A stretch of 64,000 nt of DNA from Candidatus Versatilivoraceae bacterium. Lineage in GTDB: Bacteria; Acidobacteriota; Terriglobia; Versatilivoradales; Versatilivoraceae. The notes under the pieces were generated by a model. That model made no database searches. It was given only the letters and a program-made list of their open reading frames with translations, and had not been told where the DNA came from. Positions 5,483-16,857 of the stretch are shown here, one piece after another (position 1 is the first letter of the stretch; each line of letters starts with the position of its first letter). Both the position numbers and the translations under genes were made by a program. The stretch is from the NCBI GenBank assembly GCA_965197895.1, contig OZ240232.1, positions 330,318 to 394,317 of the forward strand, given 5' to 3'.

Positions 5483-6258
5483 CCTGCCTTAAATCGTGGC
5501 TTGGTCTTTTTGAGGAAAGCCCGATACCCTTCCTGGTGGTCCTCGGTTCCAACGATCTCAAACCCTTGGTCCACTTCCGCCGGCGTCAGCGGCGCAGGAT
5601 CCAGGAGGCGGTAGGCAAACTTCTTGTGCAGGCGATTGGCCAGGGGAGCACCGTCCGCGATGCGGCGGGCGGTGGTGTAGGTTTCCTTCTCGACCTCGCT
5701 GTCCGGAACGACGCGCGTGACCAAGCCCTTGATCTTTGCTTCCCGGGAGCCGAAGACGCGACCTTCCAGAAGGATCTCCAGGGCGGCCGCCCGGCCGACG
5801 AGATCAATCAGTGCCCGGATCTCAGGGTAGGCCATGGTGATGGCGATGCGATTGACCGGGACCCCGAAACGGCTGGACTCGCCACAAATTCTGAGGTCGC
5901 ACATGGACGCCAACTCTAAACCCCCACCGACGCAGACACCTTGGATCATGGCAATGACCGGGTGCTGACAGTCCCTGATTGCTTGCATTGCCTTTTGGAT
6001 GAGGTCGCCATAGTCTCTCGCTTGCTGGCGATTGGAGCGGTGTGCCGCAAATTCGGAGATATCGGCGCCCGGCGAGAATGCTTTCCGGCCGGCCCCCCGC
6101 AGCACAATGCAGCGTAAGGTCTCATCGGACGAGAGATCTCGCATGACCTGTCCCACGCGTCCCCACAGGGCCCTGCTGAGAGCATTCAGCTTGTCGGGTC
6201 GGTTCAGAATGACCGTCGCAATGTCTTGCTCTCGCTGAGTTAAGAGAATGTCGCTCAT
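5479..6258 (-). CDS. Enoyl-CoA hydratase/isomerase (crotonase family)
   Basis: 259 aa with the crotonase oxyanion-hole pattern (FSPGADISEF.., CVGGGLELA). It overlaps the downstream CoA-transferase gene by 4 bp, which suggests an operon. Confidence 0.75.
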   Translation of the reverse strand: MSDILLTQREQDIATVILNRPDKLNALSRALWGRVGQVMRDLSSDETLRCIVLRGAGRKAFSPGADISEFAAHRSNRQQARDYGDLIQKAMQAIRDCQHPVIAMIQGVCVGGGLELASMCDLRICGESSRFGVPVNRIAITMAYPEIRALIDLVGRAAALEILLEGRVFGSREAKIKGLVTRVVPDSEVEKETYTTARRIADGAPLANRLHKKFAYRLLDPAPLTPAEVDQGFEIVGTEDHQEGYRAFLKKTKPRFKAG

Positions 6259-6490
6259 CTCTGTGAGACGCCATGGACCTGACTGGGTCTTGCCTTCAAT
6301 CCGGTTAGCCGGTGCAATCTCAACGGATCAATCCGTGATGGGTTTGAAATGCGATTCTCGAGCAGTCAGCCACTCGATTGGCTGTAGCCCTCGGCAGTCA
6401 GGTGAGGTGCACAAGCCATTCACAAATATCCTTTCGCCAGCAGTCTTGTCAAGGTTGTGTAACTGTCCATGAGTAAGCAGCGGGCCAGGG

Positions 6491-7936
6491 TCACTCGGCA
6501 GGATCTTTCTTTCCCGGTCGTGCAGGGAGTCGGATCTCGATAATCAATCCTCCTCCCGGAGCGTTAGAGGCCATCACCGAGCCATCATGGAACTGCACAG
6601 CCCGCTGTGTAATGGCCAATCCTAGTCCGGCTCCACCGCTCTGCCGGTCTCGGGCTGGTGCCACCCGGTAAAATGGCCGAAAGATCTCGGTGAGTTCCGA
6701 CTCGCGGACGCCTTTCCCTCGGTCGCGAACTCTAATGACGGCTGAGTCGCGGTTTTTCCCTTCCAGCTTCAACTCAATTTCGACTTCGGTTTGGTCCGCC
6801 GTGTAATAAACGGCGTTGCGGACAACGTTCTCAATCGCGCTTCGCAACAGTTCGTGGTTTCCGACGGTGACGCAACTCTCGCTAGAGGTGACGCGAACCG
6901 TCCTTTCCGAGCTACGGGCCTCGAATTCAGCATCGGCGGCCACCTCCGCAAGCATTTGGGCCAAGTCGACGTCGTCGTGGGTTATCTCCACGGTACCACT
7001 TTCCATGCGCGTGAGAGCAAGCAATTGGCTGATGAGCTTGTTGAGGCGCCCCGCCTCCAACTCGATTCGATCCAGTTCGTCACTGGTCTTGCCGCCAGCT
7101 CTTTGACGAATCAATGCCAGAGCCACATTCAGGCGGGCCAGGGGGGAGCGCAGCTCGTGAGAGATGTCACTGAGCAGGCGGCGCTGAGCGCCCACCATGG
7201 TTTGGATGCGTTCGGCCATTTGATCGAAATCACGGCCAAGTTCGGTGAGTTCGTCCTGGCGGCCGCGTGGAGTGTTTCCGACCCGAGCGGCCAAGTCTCC
7301 ATCCGCCAACTTCTGCGTGGCGGCCCGAAGTTTAACCAGCGGAGCAGTCAGGTAGCGTGCCAAGCCATAGCAGACGATTCCAGCCGTCAGGAACATCGCC
7401 AGCAAGCGAAGTCCCTGGGTCCGGAGATCGGCATCCGGAATGGCTAAGTCCCTCCAAAAGGATGGCGATGCCGGTCGTCGTCCGGAACGAAATCTTGGGG
7501 GAGGTCCCCTGATTTCTCCTGCCAGGACGAACTGTTGGCCCTCAGATGAAACCACACCCTGTGCCACCAGACGCACTCCATCAGAGAATTCCATCTCGAG
7601 CTTACCACTATCAGTCGCACGCACCGCCAAGGTCTTGGCCCTGGGTGATGGAGCAGGTCCAGCCAGGATGTCTCCTTGCTCATTGATGAAAGAGACGTTG
7701 AGTCGGCGCCGACGATTGACTCGATTGACGTATCGACGCAAAGCTAAGGAGCCCTGCTTCTCGAAAATGTCAGCCGCCGTTTGGGCAACGGAGGACATGG
7801 CCATCTCAATATACTGGCGCCCTTGACGGTCTGCCTGCTCTGACATGGTGGCTCGGGTCGAGAAGTAAAGGGCCAAGCCAACCAGAGCCATGGCTGCCCA
7901 GAACCAGATGAAGATTTTTAGTACAAGACTATTCAT
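6491..7936 (-). CDS. Sensor histidine kinase (two TM segments, periplasmic domain, HAMP, HisKA, HATPase)
   Basis: 481 aa with an H-box (LSDISHELRSPLARL) and a G-box (GAGLGLAI). It lies 213 bp downstream of the response regulator on the same strand. Confidence 0.8.
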   Translation of the reverse strand: MNSLVLKIFIWFWAAMALVGLALYFSTRATMSEQADRQGRQYIEMAMSSVAQTAADIFEKQGSLALRRYVNRVNRRRRLNVSFINEQGDILAGPAPSPRAKTLAVRATDSGKLEMEFSDGVRLVAQGVVSSEGQQFVLAGEIRGPPPRFRSGRRPASPSFWRDLAIPDADLRTQGLRLLAMFLTAGIVCYGLARYLTAPLVKLRAATQKLADGDLAARVGNTPRGRQDELTELGRDFDQMAERIQTMVGAQRRLLSDISHELRSPLARLNVALALIRQRAGGKTSDELDRIELEAGRLNKLISQLLALTRMESGTVEITHDDVDLAQMLAEVAADAEFEARSSERTVRVTSSESCVTVGNHELLRSAIENVVRNAVYYTADQTEVEIELKLEGKNRDSAVIRVRDRGKGVRESELTEIFRPFYRVAPARDRQSGGAGLGLAITQRAVQFHDGSVMASNAPGGGLIIEIRLPARPGKKDPAE

Positions 7937-8149
7937 GCGTTCAGCTCTTAGCCAAGAACCTCAGACGCTTTCGGCTTCATCCAAGGAGTGTCACCCACTA
8001 CTTCCAATCCGAATTTGATGGTCTGCAAATAATGGATCGGATTTTCTGCAGATTTGTCAACGAAGCAGAGGAGCAGTTCGACACAGACTCAGGCCGGGAC
8101 GGTTTCTCTAGAGCCCCTACCACAGTCCCCACAACCAAATCCGACCTCC

Positions 8150-8908
8150 TCATTGGGCAGACTTCTCCTGATCTTGGTAACCAGAAGGGGACTCTGCTCC
8201 CTCCAAAGTGTCTGGTTTGGGATAAACATACCCGACTCCCCGAACCGACTTGATCCGTTCGACTCCGTTCAGCTGGCGGCCCAGTTTTTTTCGCAAGTTG
8301 CTCACGTGCATGTCGATGCTGCGATCAAAGGGGTCAAACTCACGTCCCAGCAGTGTTTGGACGAGTTCCTCCCGGGGCACCACCTGGCCGGCCGACCGCA
8401 GTAGCATTTCCAGGAGATTGAACTCCAAAGCCGTAAGTTCCACCGGTTTGCCCGCTCGCCTGACCTTCCAGGCGTTCTTGTCCAGCTCGATATCACCCAC
8501 ATTCAGAGTCGGATGATGAATTCTGTCGGGCCCAAGCTCCCCGTTGGGCTGAGTGCGACGAATGATGGCCCGGATTCGCGCAACCAGCTCGTGAGGGTTG
8601 AAGGGTTTGGCCAGATAATCGTCAGCACCGATTTGGAGTCCCACGATTCTCTCGACGTCCTCAGCTCTCGCCGACAGCATTAGCACGGGGACTCGCGATT
8701 CAGCCCGGATGCGGCGCAAGACGTCAAAACCGTTGACACTTGGCAACATCACGTCCAGAACCACCAGGGAATACTCGCCCGAGAGGGCCCGTTCGATTCC
8801 CTCTTGTCCATCGTTGACGGTGTCCACTTGAAAACCCTCTACCTCCAGATACTCGGTGACCAGCGAACACAACTCGGTGTCGTCATCGACTACCAGCAAA
8901 CGATCCAT
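8150..8908 (-). CDS. OmpR-family response regulator (receiver + winged-helix)
   Basis: The ORF track extends to 9274. The receiver domain begins at MDRLLVVDDD, whose ATG lies at 8908 and is preceded by a GAGGT Shine-Dalgarno. The C-terminus has an OmpR/PhoB-type winged helix (VYVYP). Confidence 0.8.
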   Translation of the reverse strand: MDRLLVVDDDTELCSLVTEYLEVEGFQVDTVNDGQEGIERALSGEYSLVVLDVMLPSVNGFDVLRRIRAESRVPVLMLSARAEDVERIVGLQIGADDYLAKPFNPHELVARIRAIIRRTQPNGELGPDRIHHPTLNVGDIELDKNAWKVRRAGKPVELTALEFNLLEMLLRSAGQVVPREELVQTLLGREFDPFDRSIDMHVSNLRKKLGRQLNGVERIKSVRGVGYVYPKPDTLEGAESPSGYQDQEKSAQ

Positions 8909-9244
8909 GGTGACCTCAACGCGTGAATGGGTGCTGTACGGGTCGTCCCGGAGCAGGTAAGGGTACTGTTTTGGCTCGGTGGAGTTCAACCTTGAAGAAT
9001 AGGGTTTACTGAGATAGAAACGTTCGCTTTGGGGACAGGGTTTCAGACAAAGGGTTCCATCTGCCATGCGGCAGTTTCTCCTACAGAGGGTGCCAACTCT
9101 GACACCTGCTGCTTTTTGCCGCCAAGACGGAGGAAGAGGTTCGGTTATGGCCGGAAGAGGGTGGTGGGTCAACTGGTTCCCCCCAACACCCGAGAAGGGA
9201 CCTCCGGCCGATTTGTAAAGAAGCGTCAGATGGAGTGTCACCCG

Positions 9245-9283
9245 TTGACAAAACTCTACGCCATGCTGACGCACTCTTTACAG
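9245..9283 (+). promoter_or_regulatory. Conserved ~40-bp motif (TTGACAAAACTCTAC-N12-GCACTCTTTAC), copy A, 100 bp upstream of the CpxP-like gene
   Basis: Three near-identical copies occur at 9245, 10849 and 14129. Each has two (A)ACTCTTTAC half-sites (reverse-complement GTAAAGAGT) spaced 21-22 bp apart. Confidence 0.5.
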
Positions 9284-9382
9284 CCCTTTCGCCGAGAGCG
9301 ACGTATATATCGGTTAAGAGCCGGGGATGCAGAAAGTTCACTGCGAAGGCTCTTCCAAATCCTGGCTGAGGAGGAAACTCAA

Positions 9383-9931
9383 ATGTTTCAACTTTCAAAA
9401 AAAACGCAAACGGGTCGGATTCTAGCGAAGGGCTTGGTGGTCTCAGGCTTTGCTCTGGCATCGATCCTCTTGGTGGAATCTGCTTTCGGCCAATTCCCGG
9501 GCTTCGGAGAGGGAGGCGGCCGCGGGCGAGGCCCAGGCGGCAAGCGCATGAAAGGAAGGCAGGGAGGGAAGATGGTTGAATTTCTGGGATTGACAGAGGC
9601 TCAACAGGCCGACGCCAAAAAAATCCGACAGGCTGTCCGGGATCAATCCCAACCCATCCGCAAACAGTTGCGGGCCAACCGGAAAGCCCTGGGCGAAGCC
9701 ATCCAGGCAGGGAAGACAGCTCAGATCGACACTTTGGCAGACCAGCGGGGGCAACTTCAGGGTCAGTTGATTGCCATTGGTGCCAAAAGGCGGATGGAAC
9801 TTTTTCGAAACGTCTTGACGCCGGAGCAACAGCAGAAATGGGCTTCCTTTCAAGAGAGACGAAAAACCCGCAGGGAGGAGCGTAGGCAGAGGATGCGTGA
9901 GCGTTCTGGCCGCGGCCCCGGCGGCGACTAA
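9383..9931 (+). CDS. Periplasmic LTXXQ-motif protein (Spy/CpxP/ZraP-like chaperone family)
   Basis: Most likely start is ATG 9383, after a GAGGAGG Shine-Dalgarno. The product has a signal peptide (ILAKGLVVSGFALASILL), LTxxQ-type repeats (LTEAQQADAKKIRQ, LTPEQQQKW) and a basic C-terminus. It is divergent from the two-component operon, as cpxP is from cpxRA. Confidence 0.6.
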   Translation: MFQLSKKTQTGRILAKGLVVSGFALASILLVESAFGQFPGFGEGGGRGRGPGGKRMKGRQGGKMVEFLGLTEAQQADAKKIRQAVRDQSQPIRKQLRANRKALGEAIQAGKTAQIDTLADQRGQLQGQLIAIGAKRRMELFRNVLTPEQQQKWASFQERRKTRREERRQRMRERSGRGPGGD

Positions 9932-9936
9932 TCCTG

Positions 9937-9962
9937 GAGACCAACCCGGTGAGGTTGGTCTC
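9937..9962 (+). terminator. Putative intrinsic terminator hairpin after the CpxP-like gene
   Basis: GAGACCAACC-cggtga-GGTTGGTCTC forms a perfect 10-bp stem immediately after the TAA stop at 9931. A T-run (tctattttcgg) follows within about 25 nt. Confidence 0.4.
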
Positions 9963-10129
9963 GCCGGTGGCGATGAGGTGGGTCTATTTTCGGATAGGAT
10001 CAGACTTCACCTCATCGCCGCTGTTAGCCTCAGGGAGGCTTTGTCACGACAGCGATCCCTCGGCCAACTCGAGATGATCGACCGCCCGCAGCAGCCTGAA
10101 GACTAACGGTGGTTGACAAGGAGGGATGA

Positions 10130-10729
10130 ATGGGAACCAAGAGAGCGATGACGATCTCGATGATATTGTTTTTGGGTCTGAGCATGTCTCTGATGGCGGA
10201 CGGGAAAACCGACTTCTCAGGCATCTGGGTGCTGGATCCCGCGAGGAGCGAGTTGGGTAGCGGAGGCCGTGGACTTGGCTCCGGCGGGTTCGGCGGAGGC
10301 GGTGGTGGCAGGTTGGGTGAAGGAGGACGACGAAGGAGGGACGCTTCAGACCGGCCTGGTATGGGACGCAAGGGCAAGGGAGGCGAAATGGGCAACCTGA
10401 CCATCGATCACCGAGAACCTCAGTTGATCATCCGGCAGACGATCAGCTTGCCGGGCGAAGAGCAGGTCCGTGAGTCCGAGCACACCACCAACGGGAGAGA
10501 ATTGACCCGGGAGGGTTTTGGCGGAACGCCCGCACGGTCGAAAACCTATTGGGAGGGCACACGACTCGTGACGGAAACCAGCATGGAGACTCCCATGGGG
10601 AGCATGGAGTCCAGGGAGGTTCGCAGCCTCTCCGATGACGGCAAGGTGATGACCGTCGAGAGAACGACCCGACGAATGCGGGGAGAGCGAACTCGGAAGT
10701 TGGTGTACGTGAAGCGATCGTCTCGCTGA
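10130..10729 (+). CDS. Secreted Gly/Arg-rich hypothetical protein
   Basis: An AAGGAGGG Shine-Dalgarno precedes the start. The product has a signal peptide (MTISMILFLGLSMSLMA) and a low-complexity glycine-rich segment. No family was recognised. Confidence 0.45.
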   Translation: MGTKRAMTISMILFLGLSMSLMADGKTDFSGIWVLDPARSELGSGGRGLGSGGFGGGGGGRLGEGGRRRRDASDRPGMGRKGKGGEMGNLTIDHREPQLIIRQTISLPGEEQVRESEHTTNGRELTREGFGGTPARSKTYWEGTRLVTETSMETPMGSMESREVRSLSDDGKVMTVERTTRRMRGERTRKLVYVKRSSR

Positions 10730-10848
10730 GAACAGGTAGAGTTCCGCCTCACCGGCCATGTGGTCGATTCCTGCCGGGTTTCTCACCTCCCGAAGGACCT
10801 CTCTCGATGGTTCTGACATGGCCGAACCCGAAAGCGGCTCCACGCGAC

Positions 10849-10885
10849 TTGACAAATCTTTACCGAGTGTTGACGCACTCTTTAC
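10849..10885 (+). promoter_or_regulatory. Conserved motif copy B, 78 bp upstream of the M48 peptidase gene
   Basis: Sequence is TTGACAAATCTTTACcgagtgtTGACGCACTCTTTAC. Confidence 0.5.
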
Positions 10886-10962
10886 CTCTTTTGCGATCAA
10901 GTTGGAATCCATTCAAGTGAGGAAGGAATCTGAAAGATGTGGAACTTGACAAGGAGGGCGAC

Positions 10963-11955
10963 ATGCAATTTCTCAGACGATTTTTCCTAGTACCTTTGTT
11001 GACAATGAGCCTCGTCAGCGGCGTTCCCTTGGGTGCCAAGGCCCCCAAGAACTCCAACGTGGACGAGATCGGAAATCGTAACGTCAACAAGGGAAACTGG
11101 AATCTGATTTCGATAGAGAAGGAAATAGCCCTGGGCCGACAACTCTCCCAGCAGATCGAACGTCAAGTCAAGCTGGTTGAGGATCCTGAAGTCACGGAGT
11201 ATGTAAACCGCGTTGGACAGAACATCGTTCGCAACTCGGATGCCAAGGTGCCTTTTACTATCAAGGTGATCGACTCGGAAGAAATCAATGCCATGGCCTT
11301 GCCCGGAGGGTTCCTCTACGTCAATAGTGGACTGATTACCGCAGCCGACGACGAATCGGAAGTCGCGGGTGTGATGGCCCATGAGATTGCTCACGTCACC
11401 GCCCGCCACGCCACCGAGCAGCAAACCAAAGCCACTATTGCCAACTATGCCATGGTCCCTCTGATTTTTCTCAGCGGAGGCATCGCATCGGCGATCTACA
11501 ACGCTTCAAGCTTCTTGATTCCCATGCAATTTTTGCGGTTCAGTCGAAAGGCTGAAACCGAGGCAGACTACCTGGGGCTTCAGTATATGTACAAGACCGG
11601 CTACGACCCGAATGGATTTGTTTCCTTCTTCGAGAAACTGCAAGCCCAGAAAAAGAAGAAGCGGGGCAAGTTGGCCGTAGCGTTCTCGACCCACCCTCCG
11701 ACCCACGAGCGGATCAAAAAAACTCAGGCACACATCGAAAAGATTCTGCCGGAGCGCGACCAGTACATCATAAACACCACCGACTTTGACAAGGTCAAAG
11801 CCAAGCTCATTGCTATGGAAAATGTCAAGCGGCCATCACCAGGGGAACAACAAAAGCGACCCAGCTTAAAGCGCCGTACTCCTGGGGAGGTTCATGCGGA
11901 GGAAGAGCCACAACCTGATGATGACGATCGCCCCGTGTTGAAACGGCGCTCCTGA
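10963..11955 (+). CDS. M48-family zinc metallopeptidase (HtpX/BepA-like), secreted
   Basis: Carries the HEIAHVTARH HExxH motif typical of M48. The chosen start is MQFLRRFF.., preceded by an AAGGAGGG Shine-Dalgarno, and the product has a signal peptide. Confidence 0.75.
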   Translation: MQFLRRFFLVPLLTMSLVSGVPLGAKAPKNSNVDEIGNRNVNKGNWNLISIEKEIALGRQLSQQIERQVKLVEDPEVTEYVNRVGQNIVRNSDAKVPFTIKVIDSEEINAMALPGGFLYVNSGLITAADDESEVAGVMAHEIAHVTARHATEQQTKATIANYAMVPLIFLSGGIASAIYNASSFLIPMQFLRFSRKAETEADYLGLQYMYKTGYDPNGFVSFFEKLQAQKKKKRGKLAVAFSTHPPTHERIKKTQAHIEKILPERDQYIINTTDFDKVKAKLIAMENVKRPSPGEQQKRPSLKRRTPGEVHAEEEPQPDDDDRPVLKRRS

Positions 11956-12084
11956 TCGGCAGACCATCCCGGAGTGGGAAGGTTAGCGAGACTTGCGGGA
12001 GTCACTTCACGGGGTGGCAAAAGGAAAGGTTTGCCGGCAGAAGTGTCTCAAGACGGTTTTCCTCAAACGTGAAACGCTTCGAAC

Positions 12085-13818
12085 TCAACTTTCAAGTTCT
12101 GGGCGTTGGTGTCGCTCGGGGCGACCCTCACGCCGATTTCTGCCGCCAAAGCCACCGTCCGTCCTGCCCGGCTCACGCGAGCGTCTTCCCCTGAACATTC
12201 GACTCATTCCGTCCCGGAACTCTGCCAGTGTCACTGCACCGTCCCGGTCGGCATCAATCCGTTCCAGATTGTCGCGCATTCGTCCAGGGACTTCTTCGCC
12301 CGTGAGCTTGCCATCGCCATTGGCATCACGGCGCTGGAAGAAAGCCGAAAGGTCGAAGCCGCCACGCCGGCTGCGCCCGCCGCGACGGCCGCCGAATCGC
12401 CCTGGGCCTGCCGGTGTGACCGGAGGTGAGGGTTCCCCCTGGACCTTTGGTGGGGCAGGGGCTGCCTCAGCCTGTTGGCCGGTGGTGCTGTCTTGGTCCT
12501 CCCTCAGTGTGAGGCTGTAGAGATGCTTGCTGGAACGCAGGAATAGTTGCCCCCTGCTGATGGCCGGTGTGGCGCTGAAGTCTTCGCCGACGGATGCCAG
12601 GTGGTTGACGGCGAGCTGTGCGAATCTGTCACTGGCCTTGAGTACGAAAACCTGACCTGAGCGTGCCACGTAGTAGATCCTTCCATCCCCGATAACCGGC
12701 GATGCGTAGTCTCCTCCGAAGCCGCCCCGAGTTGACTGGCTGGCGTCGGTGGTTCTCAGGCGGTCCTTGAAGATTTCCGTGCCAGTCTTGGCATCGATAC
12801 AGGTCACGATCTTATTCGAGAAAGTGTAGAGGCGTCCCTGGTAGAGGATCGGTGTCGCCGTGCGATTGGCATGGCGGGCAGACCAGAGCACACGGGATTC
12901 GGTAACGTCGCGCCTTCCGCCAGCCCGAACCGCTACCCCTCCACCTCCCCCTGGTCCGGATTCAACGGCATAAACGATGCCGTCTTGAGAGATCACGCTA
13001 GAATTGAAATTTGAAGGCGGCAACCCCGTGGAATACCAGCGCAGCCTACCGCTGTTGGGATTGAAGCCCCAGACCTCTTTGGGGACAGCAATCACGAGGT
13101 CTGTCCGGGTTCGGTCGACGTGAGCCAATGCCGGAGTCCCCCAGGTGGCGTTGAAGCCTGCAGCCTCCTGCCTCCAAACCTCTTTCCCCGTCTTTTTGTC
13201 CAAGCCCACCAAGGCTTCACTTTCAGCGGTCGCCGTGACGATGAGCAGATCCTTGTAAAGAATGGGACTGGAAGCGGATCCGCGACCCTGGGGATCCGAT
13301 TCAATGCCGATGCGCTTTTGCCAGAGTTTCTTCCCGTCCATGTCGAAGCATAAGGCTCCGCTCTTGCCAAAGTAGACATAAACGCTCTGGCCGTCGGAAA
13401 CCGGTGTGTGCGAGGCATAACCGTGTTGGGTGATCATCCCGCTGTACTTGATTTCCGGCAGAACAGCCTCGACTTCTCTTGACCAGAGGAGTTTGCCCGT
13501 ATGACGATTGATGCAGATCAGGTGGCGCCGCAGTTGCTTCAGCTCACCGGGGTTTCTGCGATCCGTCCCATATCCCGACCAACTGGTAACGAACACTTTG
13601 TCACCGACCACGATCGGGCTCGAGGATCCCGGTCCGGGCAGCCGGCTCTTCCAATGGAGGTTTCGGGTCGCACTCCAGCTTACGGGCAGGGGATCTTGGT
13701 CGGTGCTCACGCCCGAGCCGTTCGGTCCCCGAAAGCGGGTCCAATCAGCATAAACAACTGAAGACCAAAAGAATATGCAAACCGATACCATCATCTGCAC
13801 GACTATTCGTTGAAACAC
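12085..13818 (-). CDS. PQQ-like beta-propeller repeat protein with two C-terminal EF-hand Ca-binding loops
   Basis: Shows repeated PQQ/BamB-like blade motifs. Two canonical EF-hand loops are present (DANGDGKLTGEE and DADRDGAVTLAE). The chosen start is GTG at 13818, after an AAGGAG Shine-Dalgarno, giving the signal peptide MFQRIVVQMMVSVCIFFWSSVVYA. The ORF track extends to 13875. Confidence 0.6.
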   Translation of the reverse strand: MFQRIVVQMMVSVCIFFWSSVVYADWTRFRGPNGSGVSTDQDPLPVSWSATRNLHWKSRLPGPGSSSPIVVGDKVFVTSWSGYGTDRRNPGELKQLRRHLICINRHTGKLLWSREVEAVLPEIKYSGMITQHGYASHTPVSDGQSVYVYFGKSGALCFDMDGKKLWQKRIGIESDPQGRGSASSPILYKDLLIVTATAESEALVGLDKKTGKEVWRQEAAGFNATWGTPALAHVDRTRTDLVIAVPKEVWGFNPNSGRLRWYSTGLPPSNFNSSVISQDGIVYAVESGPGGGGGVAVRAGGRRDVTESRVLWSARHANRTATPILYQGRLYTFSNKIVTCIDAKTGTEIFKDRLRTTDASQSTRGGFGGDYASPVIGDGRIYYVARSGQVFVLKASDRFAQLAVNHLASVGEDFSATPAISRGQLFLRSSKHLYSLTLREDQDSTTGQQAEAAPAPPKVQGEPSPPVTPAGPGRFGGRRGGRSRRGGFDLSAFFQRRDANGDGKLTGEEVPGRMRDNLERIDADRDGAVTLAEFRDGMSRMFRGRRSREPGRTDGGFGGRNRREGRPERHQRPELES

Positions 13819-14128
13819 TTTCAAGCTCCTTTGCCCTGAAGACAGTCCTTTGACTGCATCAGGGTTAGTTGACAAAAACTCCGGCTATTGACATTAGAAC
13901 GTCCCGGATTCTTGCTTGGTTTCCTTGAATTAGCTGTTGGGCCCTAAGGACTTGTGGGATTCCGAAAGTGCAGTTGCCCCCGTCGCCTGAGGTTTGCAGG
14001 TAGATGATAGGAACCTCCTTTTCCAAAGCACACTGCTTCGGTCCACAGCGCACCCTGAGACCTGCCAATGCATTCAACCGCTCGGTCAGCGCCGGTGTGG
14101 CTGTTGCAGATAGTTCGGTTGCCCAACC

Positions 14129-14168
14129 TTGATGACAAAACTTTACGTGGTGCTGACCAACTCTTTAC
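14129..14168 (+). promoter_or_regulatory. Conserved motif copy C, 141 bp upstream of the BON-domain gene
   Basis: Sequence is TTGATGACAAAACTTTACgtggTGCTGACCAACTCTTTAC. Confidence 0.5.
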
Positions 14169-14308
14169 ATCGATTTTGGGCGAAGGCGCGTCTATAGGAA
14201 TGTCAGCGGCATCAGGCAACCATCAGGCTGTCTGAGTGCTCTCATTACCGGGCCGGCAGGGATTCAACCATTGGCAAGAATCCGGCTCGAGCCCCATCAG
14301 GAGGATGA

Positions 14309-14893
14309 ATGATGATGAAAACATTGACTAAAGTAACAACGACTTCTTTTTTTGTGGCCGTGCTGTTGACCGTACCGTTGGCTTGCTGGGCCGGCAACCC
14401 GGGGGCTGCAGGGGCTGTGGCTGAGAATCCTTCGACGCAGGATCAGAGAGTTCTGGAAAACAAGGTCAGGCACGAACTGGTCATGCTTCCCTACTTCAGC
14501 GCCTTCGACCACCTCGGTTTTCAGGTTGATGGTGATGCCGTTCAGTTGATCGGCCAGGTCACCAGCCCAAGCTTGAAGAATTCTGCCGCAAGAGTGGTGG
14601 AAAGAATCGAGGGCATTACCAAGGTCGTCAATAATATTGAAGTGTTGCCGAACTTGCCTGGTGACGATCAGATTCGACTGGAGGTCTATCGTGCCCTTTA
14701 CAACCGGGGGAGTCGTCTTTTCCCTTACAGCCTGGGCGACTACGAAGGGATCGGGATCATTGTGAAACGGGGACACGTGACCCTCGTCGGCATGGTCAAC
14801 AGCGAGCCGGACAAGAATTTTGCCTACCTGAGGGCTCTGGCAGTCCCGGGAGTGTTCTCGGTGACCAATAGCCTCGTCGTTCAGAAAAGCTAA
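14309..14893 (+). CDS. BON-domain (OsmY-like) periplasmic protein
   Basis: A GGAGGATGA Shine-Dalgarno precedes the start. The product has a signal peptide and two BON-like modules (LPYFSAFDHLGFQVDGDAVQLIGQV.. and HVTLVGMVNSEPDK). Confidence 0.7.
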   Translation: MMMKTLTKVTTTSFFVAVLLTVPLACWAGNPGAAGAVAENPSTQDQRVLENKVRHELVMLPYFSAFDHLGFQVDGDAVQLIGQVTSPSLKNSAARVVERIEGITKVVNNIEVLPNLPGDDQIRLEVYRALYNRGSRLFPYSLGDYEGIGIIVKRGHVTLVGMVNSEPDKNFAYLRALAVPGVFSVTNSLVVQKS

Positions 14894-15105
14894 GGCCGGA
14901 GGTTTTTGACGGCCGGCCTCGCACCAAAGGTGGGGCATCCTCTCTCCTGTGTCTCACCTTCTGGTCGCATTCCACCAGTGAGTAGTCCATTTCTGCGAAT
15001 TGTCCGGACAAACCAAATCCCTGGATAGACCAATTCAGTCATCACTTTTCGCCAACAGGAGTGAATCAATCCATCGGTCGCTCGATGCGCCAGTAGGGAC
15101 TTTTT

Positions 15106-15120
15106 GAGGCCTGTGCGCTG
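15106..15120 (+). repeat. IS terminal inverted repeat (GAGGCCTGTGCGCTG), left end of copy 1
   Basis: The reverse complement is present at 17072-17086 and, with 1 mismatch, at 31891-31905. Confidence 0.65.
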
Positions 15121-15362
15121 TTGGGAACCCCTTGAAGAGCAAGGGATTTCAAGGGGGGCAAGATAACTTTACCCCAAGGGCACCCAGGATTATCAAGGGT
15201 TTGGAAGAGCTGGGGAGGGAAAATGGCGGGATTTGACCCCAAGGGCCAAGGGGGCTTGTGCCCAAGGGATTGGAGGGGATGGGGAGGAGTCCGACAGAGG
15301 TCAAGCTCAGCCGCTGCGGGCGGAAACTACTGGCTTTTGGGATCTCTATATGCTAGAATGCA

Positions 15363-16857
15363 TTGAAGTTAACTCTGAGGCCAGCGACAGGAGGAAGCGA
15401 CGTGGTGAACCGTAACCGTCCCTTGTTTTCGTGGAGCGATGTGGAACGCCGGCCGGAGTTGGAGCGTCTGGAGATGGTGCTGAAGGCCCTGCCGGACGAA
15501 GACCTGCTGAGGGCGCTGGAGCGGCGGCGGGGACGGGGACGGGACGACTATCCGATCCGGGCGATGTGGCGGGCGCTAGTGGCGGGGATCGTCTTCCAGC
15601 ATGTCTCGGTGGAGTCGTTGCTGCGGGAACTGAGGCGCAATCCGGCGCTGTTGGATGTGTGCGGGTTTGATCCGATGGGTCCGCGGCGTCGGCCCAAGGG
15701 GGGAGGCGTTTGGGGGTTGCGGGGAAAGAAGGGGGATGGGGTGCCGTCGGCCTGGAACTTCTCGCGGTTTCTCAGTGCGGTGGTCAAGCAGGAGGAGAAG
15801 CAGGGAGGGATTGCAGCGATGATGCGGCACGTGCGGGAGCAACTGATGGAGGAGGTGGAAGACTTCGGGGAGCATCTGGGCTACGACGGGAAGGCGATTG
15901 AGAGCCATTCGACGGGACAGGAGAACCGGAAGACGGGGGCAGCCCTCGGATCCGGATGCGGACTGGGGGAAGCACGAGACGCGGGGGGTGGACGGCAAGA
16001 CGGGGAAGCTGTGGAGGAAGATCAAGACCTGGTTCGACTACCGGGTGCACCTGATCGCCGACACCCGCTACGAGATTCCGGTGGCCTGCCGGGTGAGGCG
16101 GGCCTCGCAATCGGAGGTGAAACAACTGGAGGCGATGACGGAGGAGTTGTTCGAGGAGACGCCGGCATTGGCGGAGCGATGCCGGGACTTCAGCGCGGAC
16201 CGCGGCCTCGACAGTGGGCCGGTCAAGGCGAAGTTATGGGACGACTACGGCATCCGTCCCTTGATCGAACCCCGGCAGTTGTGGAAGGAGGAGAAGCAGG
16301 AGGGGGGCTACGACCCCGGCGAGGCGATCACGCGGCCGCTCTATCCGGACCGGGCCGACACCATCGTGCATACCGAAAAGGGGGAGGTCGGCTGCCTCTG
16401 CCCTGAAACCGGCCGGCAGCGACGCCTGGCCTTCCAGGGCTTTGAGGCGGCGCGGGGAACGCTGAAGTACCGCTGCCCGGCGGCGGCTTACGGGTATGGC
16501 TGTGCCGGCCGGCAACGCTGTTACCGGGCCGCGGGCTCGCAGGCGGGGGCGTTCGGGCGCATCGTGCGCATTCCCCTGGCCACCCAGGATCGGCGCATTT
16601 TCACCCCGACCCCCTACGGGAGCCCGTCCTGGAAGCGGAGCTACCGGCGTCGCCCTGCGCTGGAGCGGATCTACAGCCGCCTGGACAACGACTTCGGGTT
16701 CGAGCGGCACTTTCTGCGCGGGCACAGCCGGGTGAGGGCCCGGGTCTGCCTCGCCCTGACGGTGATGATGGCTCTCGCTCTGGCCCAAGCCCGGGCCGGA
16801 CACCGGGAAAGAATGCGCTCGCTGGTTGATGCGATTCCTTTCGCCGATACCGGATAG
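15363..16857 (+). pseudogene. DDE transposase (IS5/IS1182-like) split into two frames by a ~10-bp indel near 15930
   Basis: ORFs 15363..16406 and 15898..16857 together align colinearly with the intact 487-aa copy at 30145..31608. Copy 1 has cgacgggacaggagaaccggaagacgggggcagccctcggatcc where copy 2 has cgacggggaggaagagggggaagacctcggatcc. Confidence 0.65.

Follow-up and report, generated by a model that had tools for sequence, protein, structure and literature searches.

The window analysed here, a stretch of 64,000 nucleotides from Candidatus Versatilivoraceae bacterium (contig OZ240232.1), carries between positions 6491 and 14893 a locus that very probably encodes a Cpx-type envelope-stress two-component system with a predicted local regulon. 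Its source is an uncultured soil acidobacterium of the Terriglobia (Candidatus Versatilivorator clade), which is known from metagenome-assembled genomes only. Cpx homologues are found across alpha-, beta- and gamma-Proteobacteria, where cpxP is usually divergent from cpxRA (2025 paper, PMC12802237). A full-text literature search found no described Cpx system in Acidobacteriota, and the locus would, judging from its sequence, genuinely extend the Cpx-type module to this phylum. In the proposed mechanism, the membrane kinase (6491-7936, minus strand) would sense a presumed periplasmic cue via a sensor domain with no detectable relationship to the one in E. coli CpxA and phosphorylate the CpxR-like regulator (8150-8908, minus strand). 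The regulator is predicted to bind, probably as two tandem dimers, to the array TTGAC-N5-TTTAC-N6-yTGAC-N6-TTTAC, whose half-sites are the reverse complements of the GTAAA and GTCAA half-sites of CpxR and which would stop approximately 22-24 nt before a -10-like hexamer in promoters that have no -35 element. The bound regulator may thereby activate three envelope genes, which encode a CpxP/Spy-like LTXXQ protein, a BepA/LoiP-like M48 protease and an OsmY/DolP-like dual-BON protein; the first of these may also feed back on the kinase in the manner of CpxP.

The motif is 37 bp long and occurs exactly three times in the window, always on the plus strand. Measured from its last base to the first base of the start codon, copy 1 (9245-9281) lies 101 nt before the LTXXQ gene, copy 2 (10849-10885) 77 nt before the M48 gene, and copy 3 (14132-14168) 140 nt before the BON gene. 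The three copies align as (T/A)TGAC-AAA(A/T)C-T(C/T)TAC-N6-(C/T)TGAC-NNACTC-TTTAC, which resolves into four direct-repeat half-sites, TTGAC, TTTAC, yTGAC and TTTAC, with 3' ends 10, 11 and 11 bp apart. These are TTGAC (9245-9249), TCTAC (9255-9259), CTGAC (9266-9270) and TTTAC (9277-9281) in copy 1, TTGAC (10849-10853), TTTAC (10859-10863), TTGAC (10870-10874) and TTTAC (10881-10885) in copy 2, and ATGAC (14132-14136), TTTAC (14142-14146), CTGAC (14153-14157) and TTTAC (14164-14168) in copy 3, all on the plus strand. Four half-sites at helical phasing are the standard layout for OmpR/PhoB-family regulators that bind as tandem dimers. Within the window, a degenerate 36-mer of the motif matches three times against 0.00 expected from 100 shuffles, the core TGACNNACTCTTTAC three times against 0.6 expected, and strict dimers of the form TKAC-N5-6-TTTAC six times against 0.39 expected, with five of the six lying inside the three motifs. 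The shuffles thus uphold the initial annotation of this DNA, which had reported three plus-strand copies upstream of the CpxP-like, M48 and BON genes, but several details of its description require correction. It had placed the half-sites about 21 bp apart, overlooking the TTGAC-type sites that stand between the TTTAC sites; it had given the first half of the motif as ACTCTTTAC, which reads AACTCTAC, ATCTTTAC and AACTTTAC; the sequence that it called a 22-mer comprises 18 letters; and it had started the third copy with TTGAC instead of ATGAC.

The seven genes called between 6491 and 14893 were scanned against Pfam and NCBIfam, and the three that follow the motif all fall into envelope-protein families. 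Each product begins with a signal-peptide-like hydrophobic stretch, including that of the M48 protease, as read by eye from the translations and not with a signal-peptide or transmembrane predictor. The first gene (9383-9931, plus strand, ATG at 9383) encodes a secreted LTXXQ-family protein (Pfam LTXXQ, 1.6e-8, and Metal_resist) that matches the Spy and CpxP families of NCBIfam weakly and shares 27% identity with CpxP of E. coli (E = 9e-8). The second (10963-11955, plus strand, ATG at 10963) encodes a secreted M48 zinc metalloprotease (Pfam Peptidase_M48, 2.5e-33). Its NCBIfam scores (BepA, 175.9 bits over profile positions 24-301 of 483; LoiP, 73.7 bits) describe a protease domain of BepA type that lacks BepA's TPR part. 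With the membrane-integrated HtpX family the match is poor (no more than 31 bits for any NCBIfam model), and the analogy with HtpX that had been drawn for this gene is weak because the protease is of the secreted BepA/LoiP type and not an HtpX orthologue. The third gene (14309-14893, plus strand, ATG at 14309) encodes a secreted dual-BON protein (Pfam BON in two stretches, 2.4e-20), with weak NCBIfam matches to OsmY and to a DolP-type lipoprotein.

The arrangement is conserved among relatives. A kinase-based scan of species-representative genomes yielded 58 loci, 12 of which belong to metagenome-assembled genomes of Terriglobia or Candidatus Versatilivorator (Acidobacteriota) and encode kinases 70-83% identical to the window kinase. 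Gene order in the 12 loci is CoA-transferase, enoyl-CoA hydratase, kinase and regulator on one side of the divergent intergenic region, and LTXXQ, (unknown), M48, (PQQ) and BON on the other. Upstream alignments place the motif at all three promoters in every one of the 12 relatives that reaches them. At the LTXXQ promoter (12 genomes; 99-106 nt to the start codon), pairwise identity is 95% within the motif and 57% in the 60 nt upstream of it; the corresponding values are 88% and 41% at the M48 promoter (11 genomes; 76-78 nt) and 88% and 51% at the BON promoter (10 genomes; 134-141 nt). A 45-nt weight matrix was built from the sites of the relatives (consensus CGCCTTGACAAAACTTTACAGAACGTTGACCCACTCTTTACATCG, the central 37 nt of which are the motif). 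Over 1.06 Mb, comprising both strands of the window and the 58 related loci, it finds orthologous promoter positions only, at 45-68 bits, with a single weaker exception, a site of 35 bits in the more distant Acidobacteriota locus L013, where it is divergent from the regulator gene. Both a matrix scan, proposed for the whole genome and carried out on this 1.06 Mb, and a comparison with orthologous acidobacterial loci had been suggested in the initial annotation, and both agree with it. So does its gene layout, a Cpx-like regulator and kinase divergent from a cpxP-like gene, which the Pfam domains, the resemblance to CpxP and the synteny in 12 genomes bear out.

The association of the motif with a particular regulator family is apparent from metagenomes. 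Contigs were scanned by DNA pattern only (AANNTYTACN6YTGACNNACTCTTTAC), so that the motif is nearly invariant in this set because exact matches were searched for, which is no sign of conservation. At least 120 stretches matched, and 80 loci were examined. Among the matches listed, 56 loci are informative in that they include at least 900 bp upstream of the motif, and 42 of these encode, on the opposite strand, a regulator 51-68% identical to the window regulator. Its start codon is located 51-207 bp from the motif in 39 of the 42 and at approx. 713 bp in the other three, and a kinase 40-50% identical to that of the window follows in most of them. Because the regulator was not used in the search, this co-occurrence provides strong evidence, at the level of sequence, for recognition of the motif by the adjacent regulator family. 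Loci in which no regulator is nearby have the appearance of dispersed regulon members. The gene after the motif, again among the loci listed, encodes a protein of approx. 1000 amino acids with a CarboxypepD_reg domain and an outer-membrane barrel in 29 cases, an LTXXQ protein in 16, a single-domain receiver in 11, an HlyD-type membrane-fusion protein in four, a transglutaminase-like protein in two and a VWA protein in one. The regulators of these loci are 60-68% identical to those of several labelled lineages alike, for which reason the lineage of the loci is not assignable. The view that one regulator motif is shared by three envelope genes is thus favoured by synteny and motif conservation, by co-occurrence in metagenomes, by the recognition helix of the regulator and by a parallel in E. 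coli (see below). A regulon had indeed been proposed from the window, but one window is too little to call it "small", and in the metagenomic contigs, whose lineage is unassigned, the motif also precedes barrels, HlyD adaptors, receivers and others.

In E. coli, the DNA between cpxR and cpxP contains, in the direction of cpxP, the sequence CTTTAC-gttgt-TTTAC-acccc-CTGAC-gcatg-TTTGC, whose four half-sites recur every 10 bp and are ordered and oriented as in the window motif. The hexamer TAAACT, 11 nt past this array, presumably serves as the -10 element. In the window, the candidate -10 hexamer of the LTXXQ promoter is TATATA (9304-9309, plus strand), 22 nt after the motif, and the block GACGTATATA at this position is invariant in 12 of 12 genomes. 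The BON promoter has the candidate TATAGG (14193-14198, plus strand) with a block, GCGTCTATAGAAATGTCAG, that is conserved in relatives, and the M48 promoter has a weak candidate, TCCATT (10908-10913, plus strand). Across the metagenomic and window promoters, -10-like hexamers occur at fixed offsets after the motif: +23 to +25 in most classes, and +13 (TACAAT) in the metagenomic outer-membrane-barrel class, where the array ends 12 nt before the hexamer. One helical turn separates these offsets. At the three window promoters no -35 element was found, and a sigma-70 consensus scan reports no promoter there, a failure that we read as reflecting promoters without a -35 element. Since a -35 element is lacking and the -10 offsets are fixed, the array probably abuts or overlaps the -35 position, as it would at an activator-dependent promoter. 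The TTGACA within the motif was considered as a sigma-70 -35 element and rejected, as its spacer to any -10 hexamer would be at least 20 nt.

It is unlikely that the adjacent regulator binds the motif as a repressor or dual regulator instead. CpxR of E. coli carries the annotation of a dual regulator, and the array of the outer-membrane-barrel class overlaps the -35 position, as a repressor site might; however, the want of a recognisable -35 and the failed sigma-70 scan at the three window promoters are typical of activator-dependent promoters, and the array is situated wholly upstream of the -10 hexamer, clear of the presumed start site. Moreover, the E. coli cpxP promoter, which has the same layout, is activated by CpxR (PMC9600279, Table 1).

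The regulator belongs to the OmpR/PhoB family (Pfam Response_reg and Trans_reg_C) and resembles CpxR more than any of the E. coli paralogues compared: it is 45-46% identical to CpxR, 37% to OmpR, 35% to PhoB and 35% to BaeR. DNA-binding domains were aligned to the E. coli K-12 paralogues, as the CpxR entries in PDB consist of the receiver domain only. In particular, the recognition helix PFDRSIDMHVSNLRKKL differs from that of CpxR, PFDRAIDMHISNLRRKL, only by S/A, V/I and K/R exchanges, while those of OmpR (AMERSIDVQISRLRRMV), PhoB (VEDRTVDVHIRRLRKAL) and BaeR (VTDRTIDSHIKNLRRKL) differ much more. The kinase (Pfam HAMP, HisKA and HATPase_c) has a CpxA-like cytoplasmic part. Its highest NCBIfam scores are those of CpxA, with 337 bits for the Legionella type (end to end) and 289 bits for the E. 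coli type (from residue 179), followed by BaeS with 174 bits and EnvZ with 137 bits. Two predicted transmembrane segments surround a periplasmic domain of approx. 150 amino acids, and identity to E. coli CpxA is 41% over residues 199-471 only, which correspond to the transmitter. The locus thus combines a CpxR-type recognition helix, GTAAA/GTCAA repeats at 10-11 bp, a divergent LTXXQ gene with intergenic boxes and a CpxA-like transmitter. Its scores and identities do not place it in the OmpR-EnvZ system, given 37% identity to OmpR against 45-46% to CpxR, and 137 bits for EnvZ against 289-337 bits for CpxA.

Several observations weigh against the assignment to Cpx. The best NCBIfam score of the regulator, 221 bits for CpxR, is below the equivalog cut-off of 341 bits and barely above those of RpaB (209.5 bits) and OmpR (209.3 bits), and both CpxA scores of the kinase are likewise below their cut-offs (337 against 800 bits, and 289 against 486 bits); the curated thresholds for CpxR and CpxA are hence not reached. 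The CpxA periplasmic sensor domain is not found either: no similarity between the periplasmic domain of the kinase and E. coli CpxA was detected by Pfam, by BLASTP (nothing before residue 199) or by hhalign, in which a 13-sequence profile of the N-terminal part of the kinase (approx. 200 residues) was compared with CpxA residues 1-195 and only the second transmembrane segment aligned. The candidate -10 hexamer of the M48 promoter is weak (TCCATT in the window, TCTGAT in relatives). Finally, TTTAC-type half-sites at a 10-bp phase are typical of OmpR sites as well, and DNA alone does not separate CpxR from OmpR for this reason.

The last point, together with the closeness of the three NCBIfam scores of the regulator, would also suit a motif bound by a different OmpR-family regulator encoded elsewhere, such as a true OmpR or an RpaB-like paralogue, the adjacency being incidental. 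This is quite improbable. The regulator family stands divergent from the motif, approximately 50-200 bp away, in 42 of the 56 informative loci listed despite the varying downstream gene, its recognition helix matches CpxR and not OmpR, and the partner kinase scores far higher with CpxA (289-337 bits) than with EnvZ (137 bits).

There is very little chance that the motif is the promoter of an alternative sigma factor, for example one of the extracytoplasmic function (ECF) type. It does form a conserved block at a fixed distance before envelope genes, as ECF regulons often do, but it extends over 37 bp as four direct repeats at 10-11 bp, not as a bipartite -35/-10 element with a 16-17-nt spacer, and a separate -10-like hexamer follows 12 or 22-24 nt further downstream. 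The motif is linked to a response regulator with its kinase, and the seven genes scanned in 6491-14893 yielded no sigma-factor domain. A repetitive extragenic palindromic (REP)-like or mobile repeat without a regulatory role, which DNA of approx. 40 bp repeated within a 5-kb stretch might suggest and which the initial annotation had named as one finding that would overturn its proposal, can be set aside because the matches of the weight matrix are confined to orthologous promoter positions: the 64 kb contain three copies, and approx. 1 Mb of related sequence has none elsewhere; all three point the same way with respect to the gene that follows, the start codon comes 77-140 nt after each, and they occupy orthologous positions in 12 genomes with divergent flanks and have no inverted-repeat structure.

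Among known systems, that of E. coli is the closest in layout, as in both a cpxP-like gene is divergent from the regulator and kinase genes. dsbA and spy are commonly cited E. coli Cpx targets. The CpxR box is GTAAA-N5-6-GTAAA, and degP and htpX are E. coli Cpx targets (PMC9600279, the targets in Table 1), whereas those predicted in the window encode a protease of the BepA/LoiP kind and a BON protein. The window differs further in the phasing of its array (10/11/11 bp against 10/10/10 bp), which opens with TTGAC instead of the TTTAC of E. coli cpxP, in its host phylum, Acidobacteriota, in a sensor domain without detectable homology and in family scores that are all below the equivalog cut-offs. 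An RNA resembling the E. coli CpxQ, or any other structured RNA, was not detected by Rfam in positions 6000-15500, where one sub-threshold chance match only was obtained.

Pseudomonas aeruginosa, likewise not one of the Enterobacteriaceae, has a homologous Cpx system, CpxS-CpxR-CpxP, with a CpxR box next to cpxP (PMC12802237). In strain PAO1, CpxR also selects GTCAA half-sites, a documented variant of the CpxR half-site; P. aeruginosa CpxR accepts both GTCAA and GTAAA (PMC12802237), and the window motif has both types. The targets of P. aeruginosa CpxR include resistance-nodulation-division (RND) and membrane-fusion efflux components (PMC12802237), and in the metagenomic relatives the motif precedes HlyD-type adaptors. 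Unlike in the window, cpxS and cpxR flank cpxP on opposite sides in P. aeruginosa, and the sites there are mostly single dimers, while the window keeps the four-half-site array at every target.

Other OmpR-family systems share single features with the locus. OmpR, in the OmpR-EnvZ system, binds the tandem sites F1-F3 and C1-C3, with several phased direct-repeat half-sites upstream of the -35 element. The window likewise has an OmpR-family regulator and phased direct repeats upstream of the -35 position, but its regulator and kinase are closer to CpxR and CpxA, the divergent gene is of the LTXXQ family, and there is no porin target. PhoB activates pho-box promoters by a class II mechanism; its direct repeats adjoin the -35 element or stand in its place, with a constant spacing to the -10 element. 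The metagenomic barrel class, with its array ending just before TACAAT, is similar in this respect, whereas the regulator subfamily differs (35% identity to PhoB) and the window arrays are located one helical turn further upstream. BaeSR-Spy and ZraSR-ZraP both pair an LTXXQ/Metal_resist periplasmic protein with a two-component system, as the window does. In contrast to BaeSR, however, the window has a regulator only 35% identical to BaeR, with a different recognition helix, and half-sites of the GTAAA type in its motif; ZraR is an NtrC-type sigma-54 activator and not an OmpR-type regulator.

Acidobacteriota are among the most abundant soil bacteria and are mostly uncultured, and to our knowledge almost no regulation has been characterised in the phylum. 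The locus offers a high-information operator, a clearly assignable regulator, three target promoters and further candidate targets in soil metagenomes. It reveals no new mechanism but a known type of system in a new phylum, and it may provide a practical handle on envelope stress in uncultured soil bacteria. As far as the sequences indicate, the CpxR recognition helix would have retained its half-site specificity from one phylum to another while the sensor domain and the targets changed, which makes the locus a useful case for how stress regulons are rewired. A wider proposal is put forward tentatively: the Cpx response may reach beyond Proteobacteria into Acidobacteriota, and possibly into neighbouring lineages that bear the labels Abditibacteriaceae and Capsulimonas among the loci, with a different sensor domain, an unusually long and strictly kept four-half-site operator, and wiring to outer-membrane biogenesis and quality control (BepA-like proteases, DolP/OsmY-like BON proteins, giant CarboxypepD_reg barrels and HlyD-type adaptors). 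In E. coli, such outer-membrane tasks are largely under the control of sigma-E. If the proposal is true, the four-site architecture would survive at the cpxP promoter of E. coli as a degenerate relic.

Beyond the 12 close relatives, many proteobacterial loci from the kinase-homology scan have canonical GTAAA-N5-GTAAA boxes approximately 90-100 bp upstream of their regulator gene, and phased boxes of the GTAAA/GTCAA type are present in the same upstream region of the distant loci L013, L016, L017, L022 and L023. In L014 (approx. 9150-9195) and L025 (approx. 8999-9046), read as the reverse complement of the printed stretches, GTGAG-N5-GTGAA-type repeats (TGTGAGAAATTGTGAA) replace the GTAAA-type motif upstream of the regulator gene, and an inverted partner, TTCACAATTTCTCACA, lies near the repeats in L014. 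The regulators of these two loci are 63-64% identical to that of the window, and the repeats hint at a shifted specificity. Among the metagenomic loci, the receiver-only class (L070, L076, L078, L079, L091, L098, L099, L107, L108 and L127) encodes proteins of approx. 145 amino acids and has the motif 76-90 nt upstream, or 28 nt in L098, with no obvious -10 hexamer at the usual offsets.

The intergenic region between the regulator and LTXXQ genes (8909-9382) is 474 bp long in the window, compared with approx. 233 bp in L003-L011, and a motif-like remnant, GGTTTACTGAGATAG, is found near 9003 within the extra DNA. The only strict dimer in the 64 kb outside the three motifs, TGACGCTTCTTTAC (9215-9228, minus strand), faces the regulator gene; it is kept in L001 as GTAAAGAATTGTAAG and degenerate in L012. 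It is a possible autoregulatory site, although a doubtful one because it is about 300 bp from the regulator ATG. A 213-bp gap (7937-8149) separates the regulator stop codon from the kinase start codon, while in several relatives (L007, L008) they lie directly against each other or overlap. The 5' untranslated regions (5'UTRs) of the three target genes are 68-90% identical across genomes. That of the LTXXQ gene contains a stem, AAGAG(C/T)C...GGCTCTT (9317-9354, plus strand), which is essentially invariant in nine genomes with one covarying pair only and, being invariant, gives no covariation signal. A hairpin with a perfect 12-bp stem and no T-tract, read from the sequence, follows the LTXXQ stop codon (9969-10019, plus strand), and relatives have a hairpin of different sequence at this position. 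On the model of E. coli CpxQ, this hairpin may be a terminator or a 3'UTR-derived RNA.

The remaining genes lie between and beyond the targets. A secreted Gly-rich protein (10130-10729, plus strand) has no Pfam or NCBIfam match and no assigned family. Its tblastn matches are full-length in seven of the 12 syntenic loci; in L005 a fragment is matched at the contig edge, L006 stops short of the region, and no match was obtained in L002, L003 or L010, with a start-codon remnant visible in L002. Neither the alignments nor the weight matrix place a motif upstream of this gene, which may be read through from the LTXXQ promoter. The PQQ/BamB-like beta-propeller with a C-terminal EF-hand (12085-13875, minus strand; Pfam PQQ_2 and EF-hand) appears to be a neighbour whose membership in the regulon the motif does not support: the weight-matrix scan found no motif oriented towards it, and tblastn found no match in L001 or L009, both of which retain the M48 and BON genes. 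Directly 3' of the BON gene is an insertion-sequence-type transposase (15363-16857, plus strand) in two overlapping frames, DUF772 (15363-16406) and DDE_Tnp_1 (15898-16857), which is probably frameshifted or uses programmed frameshifting.

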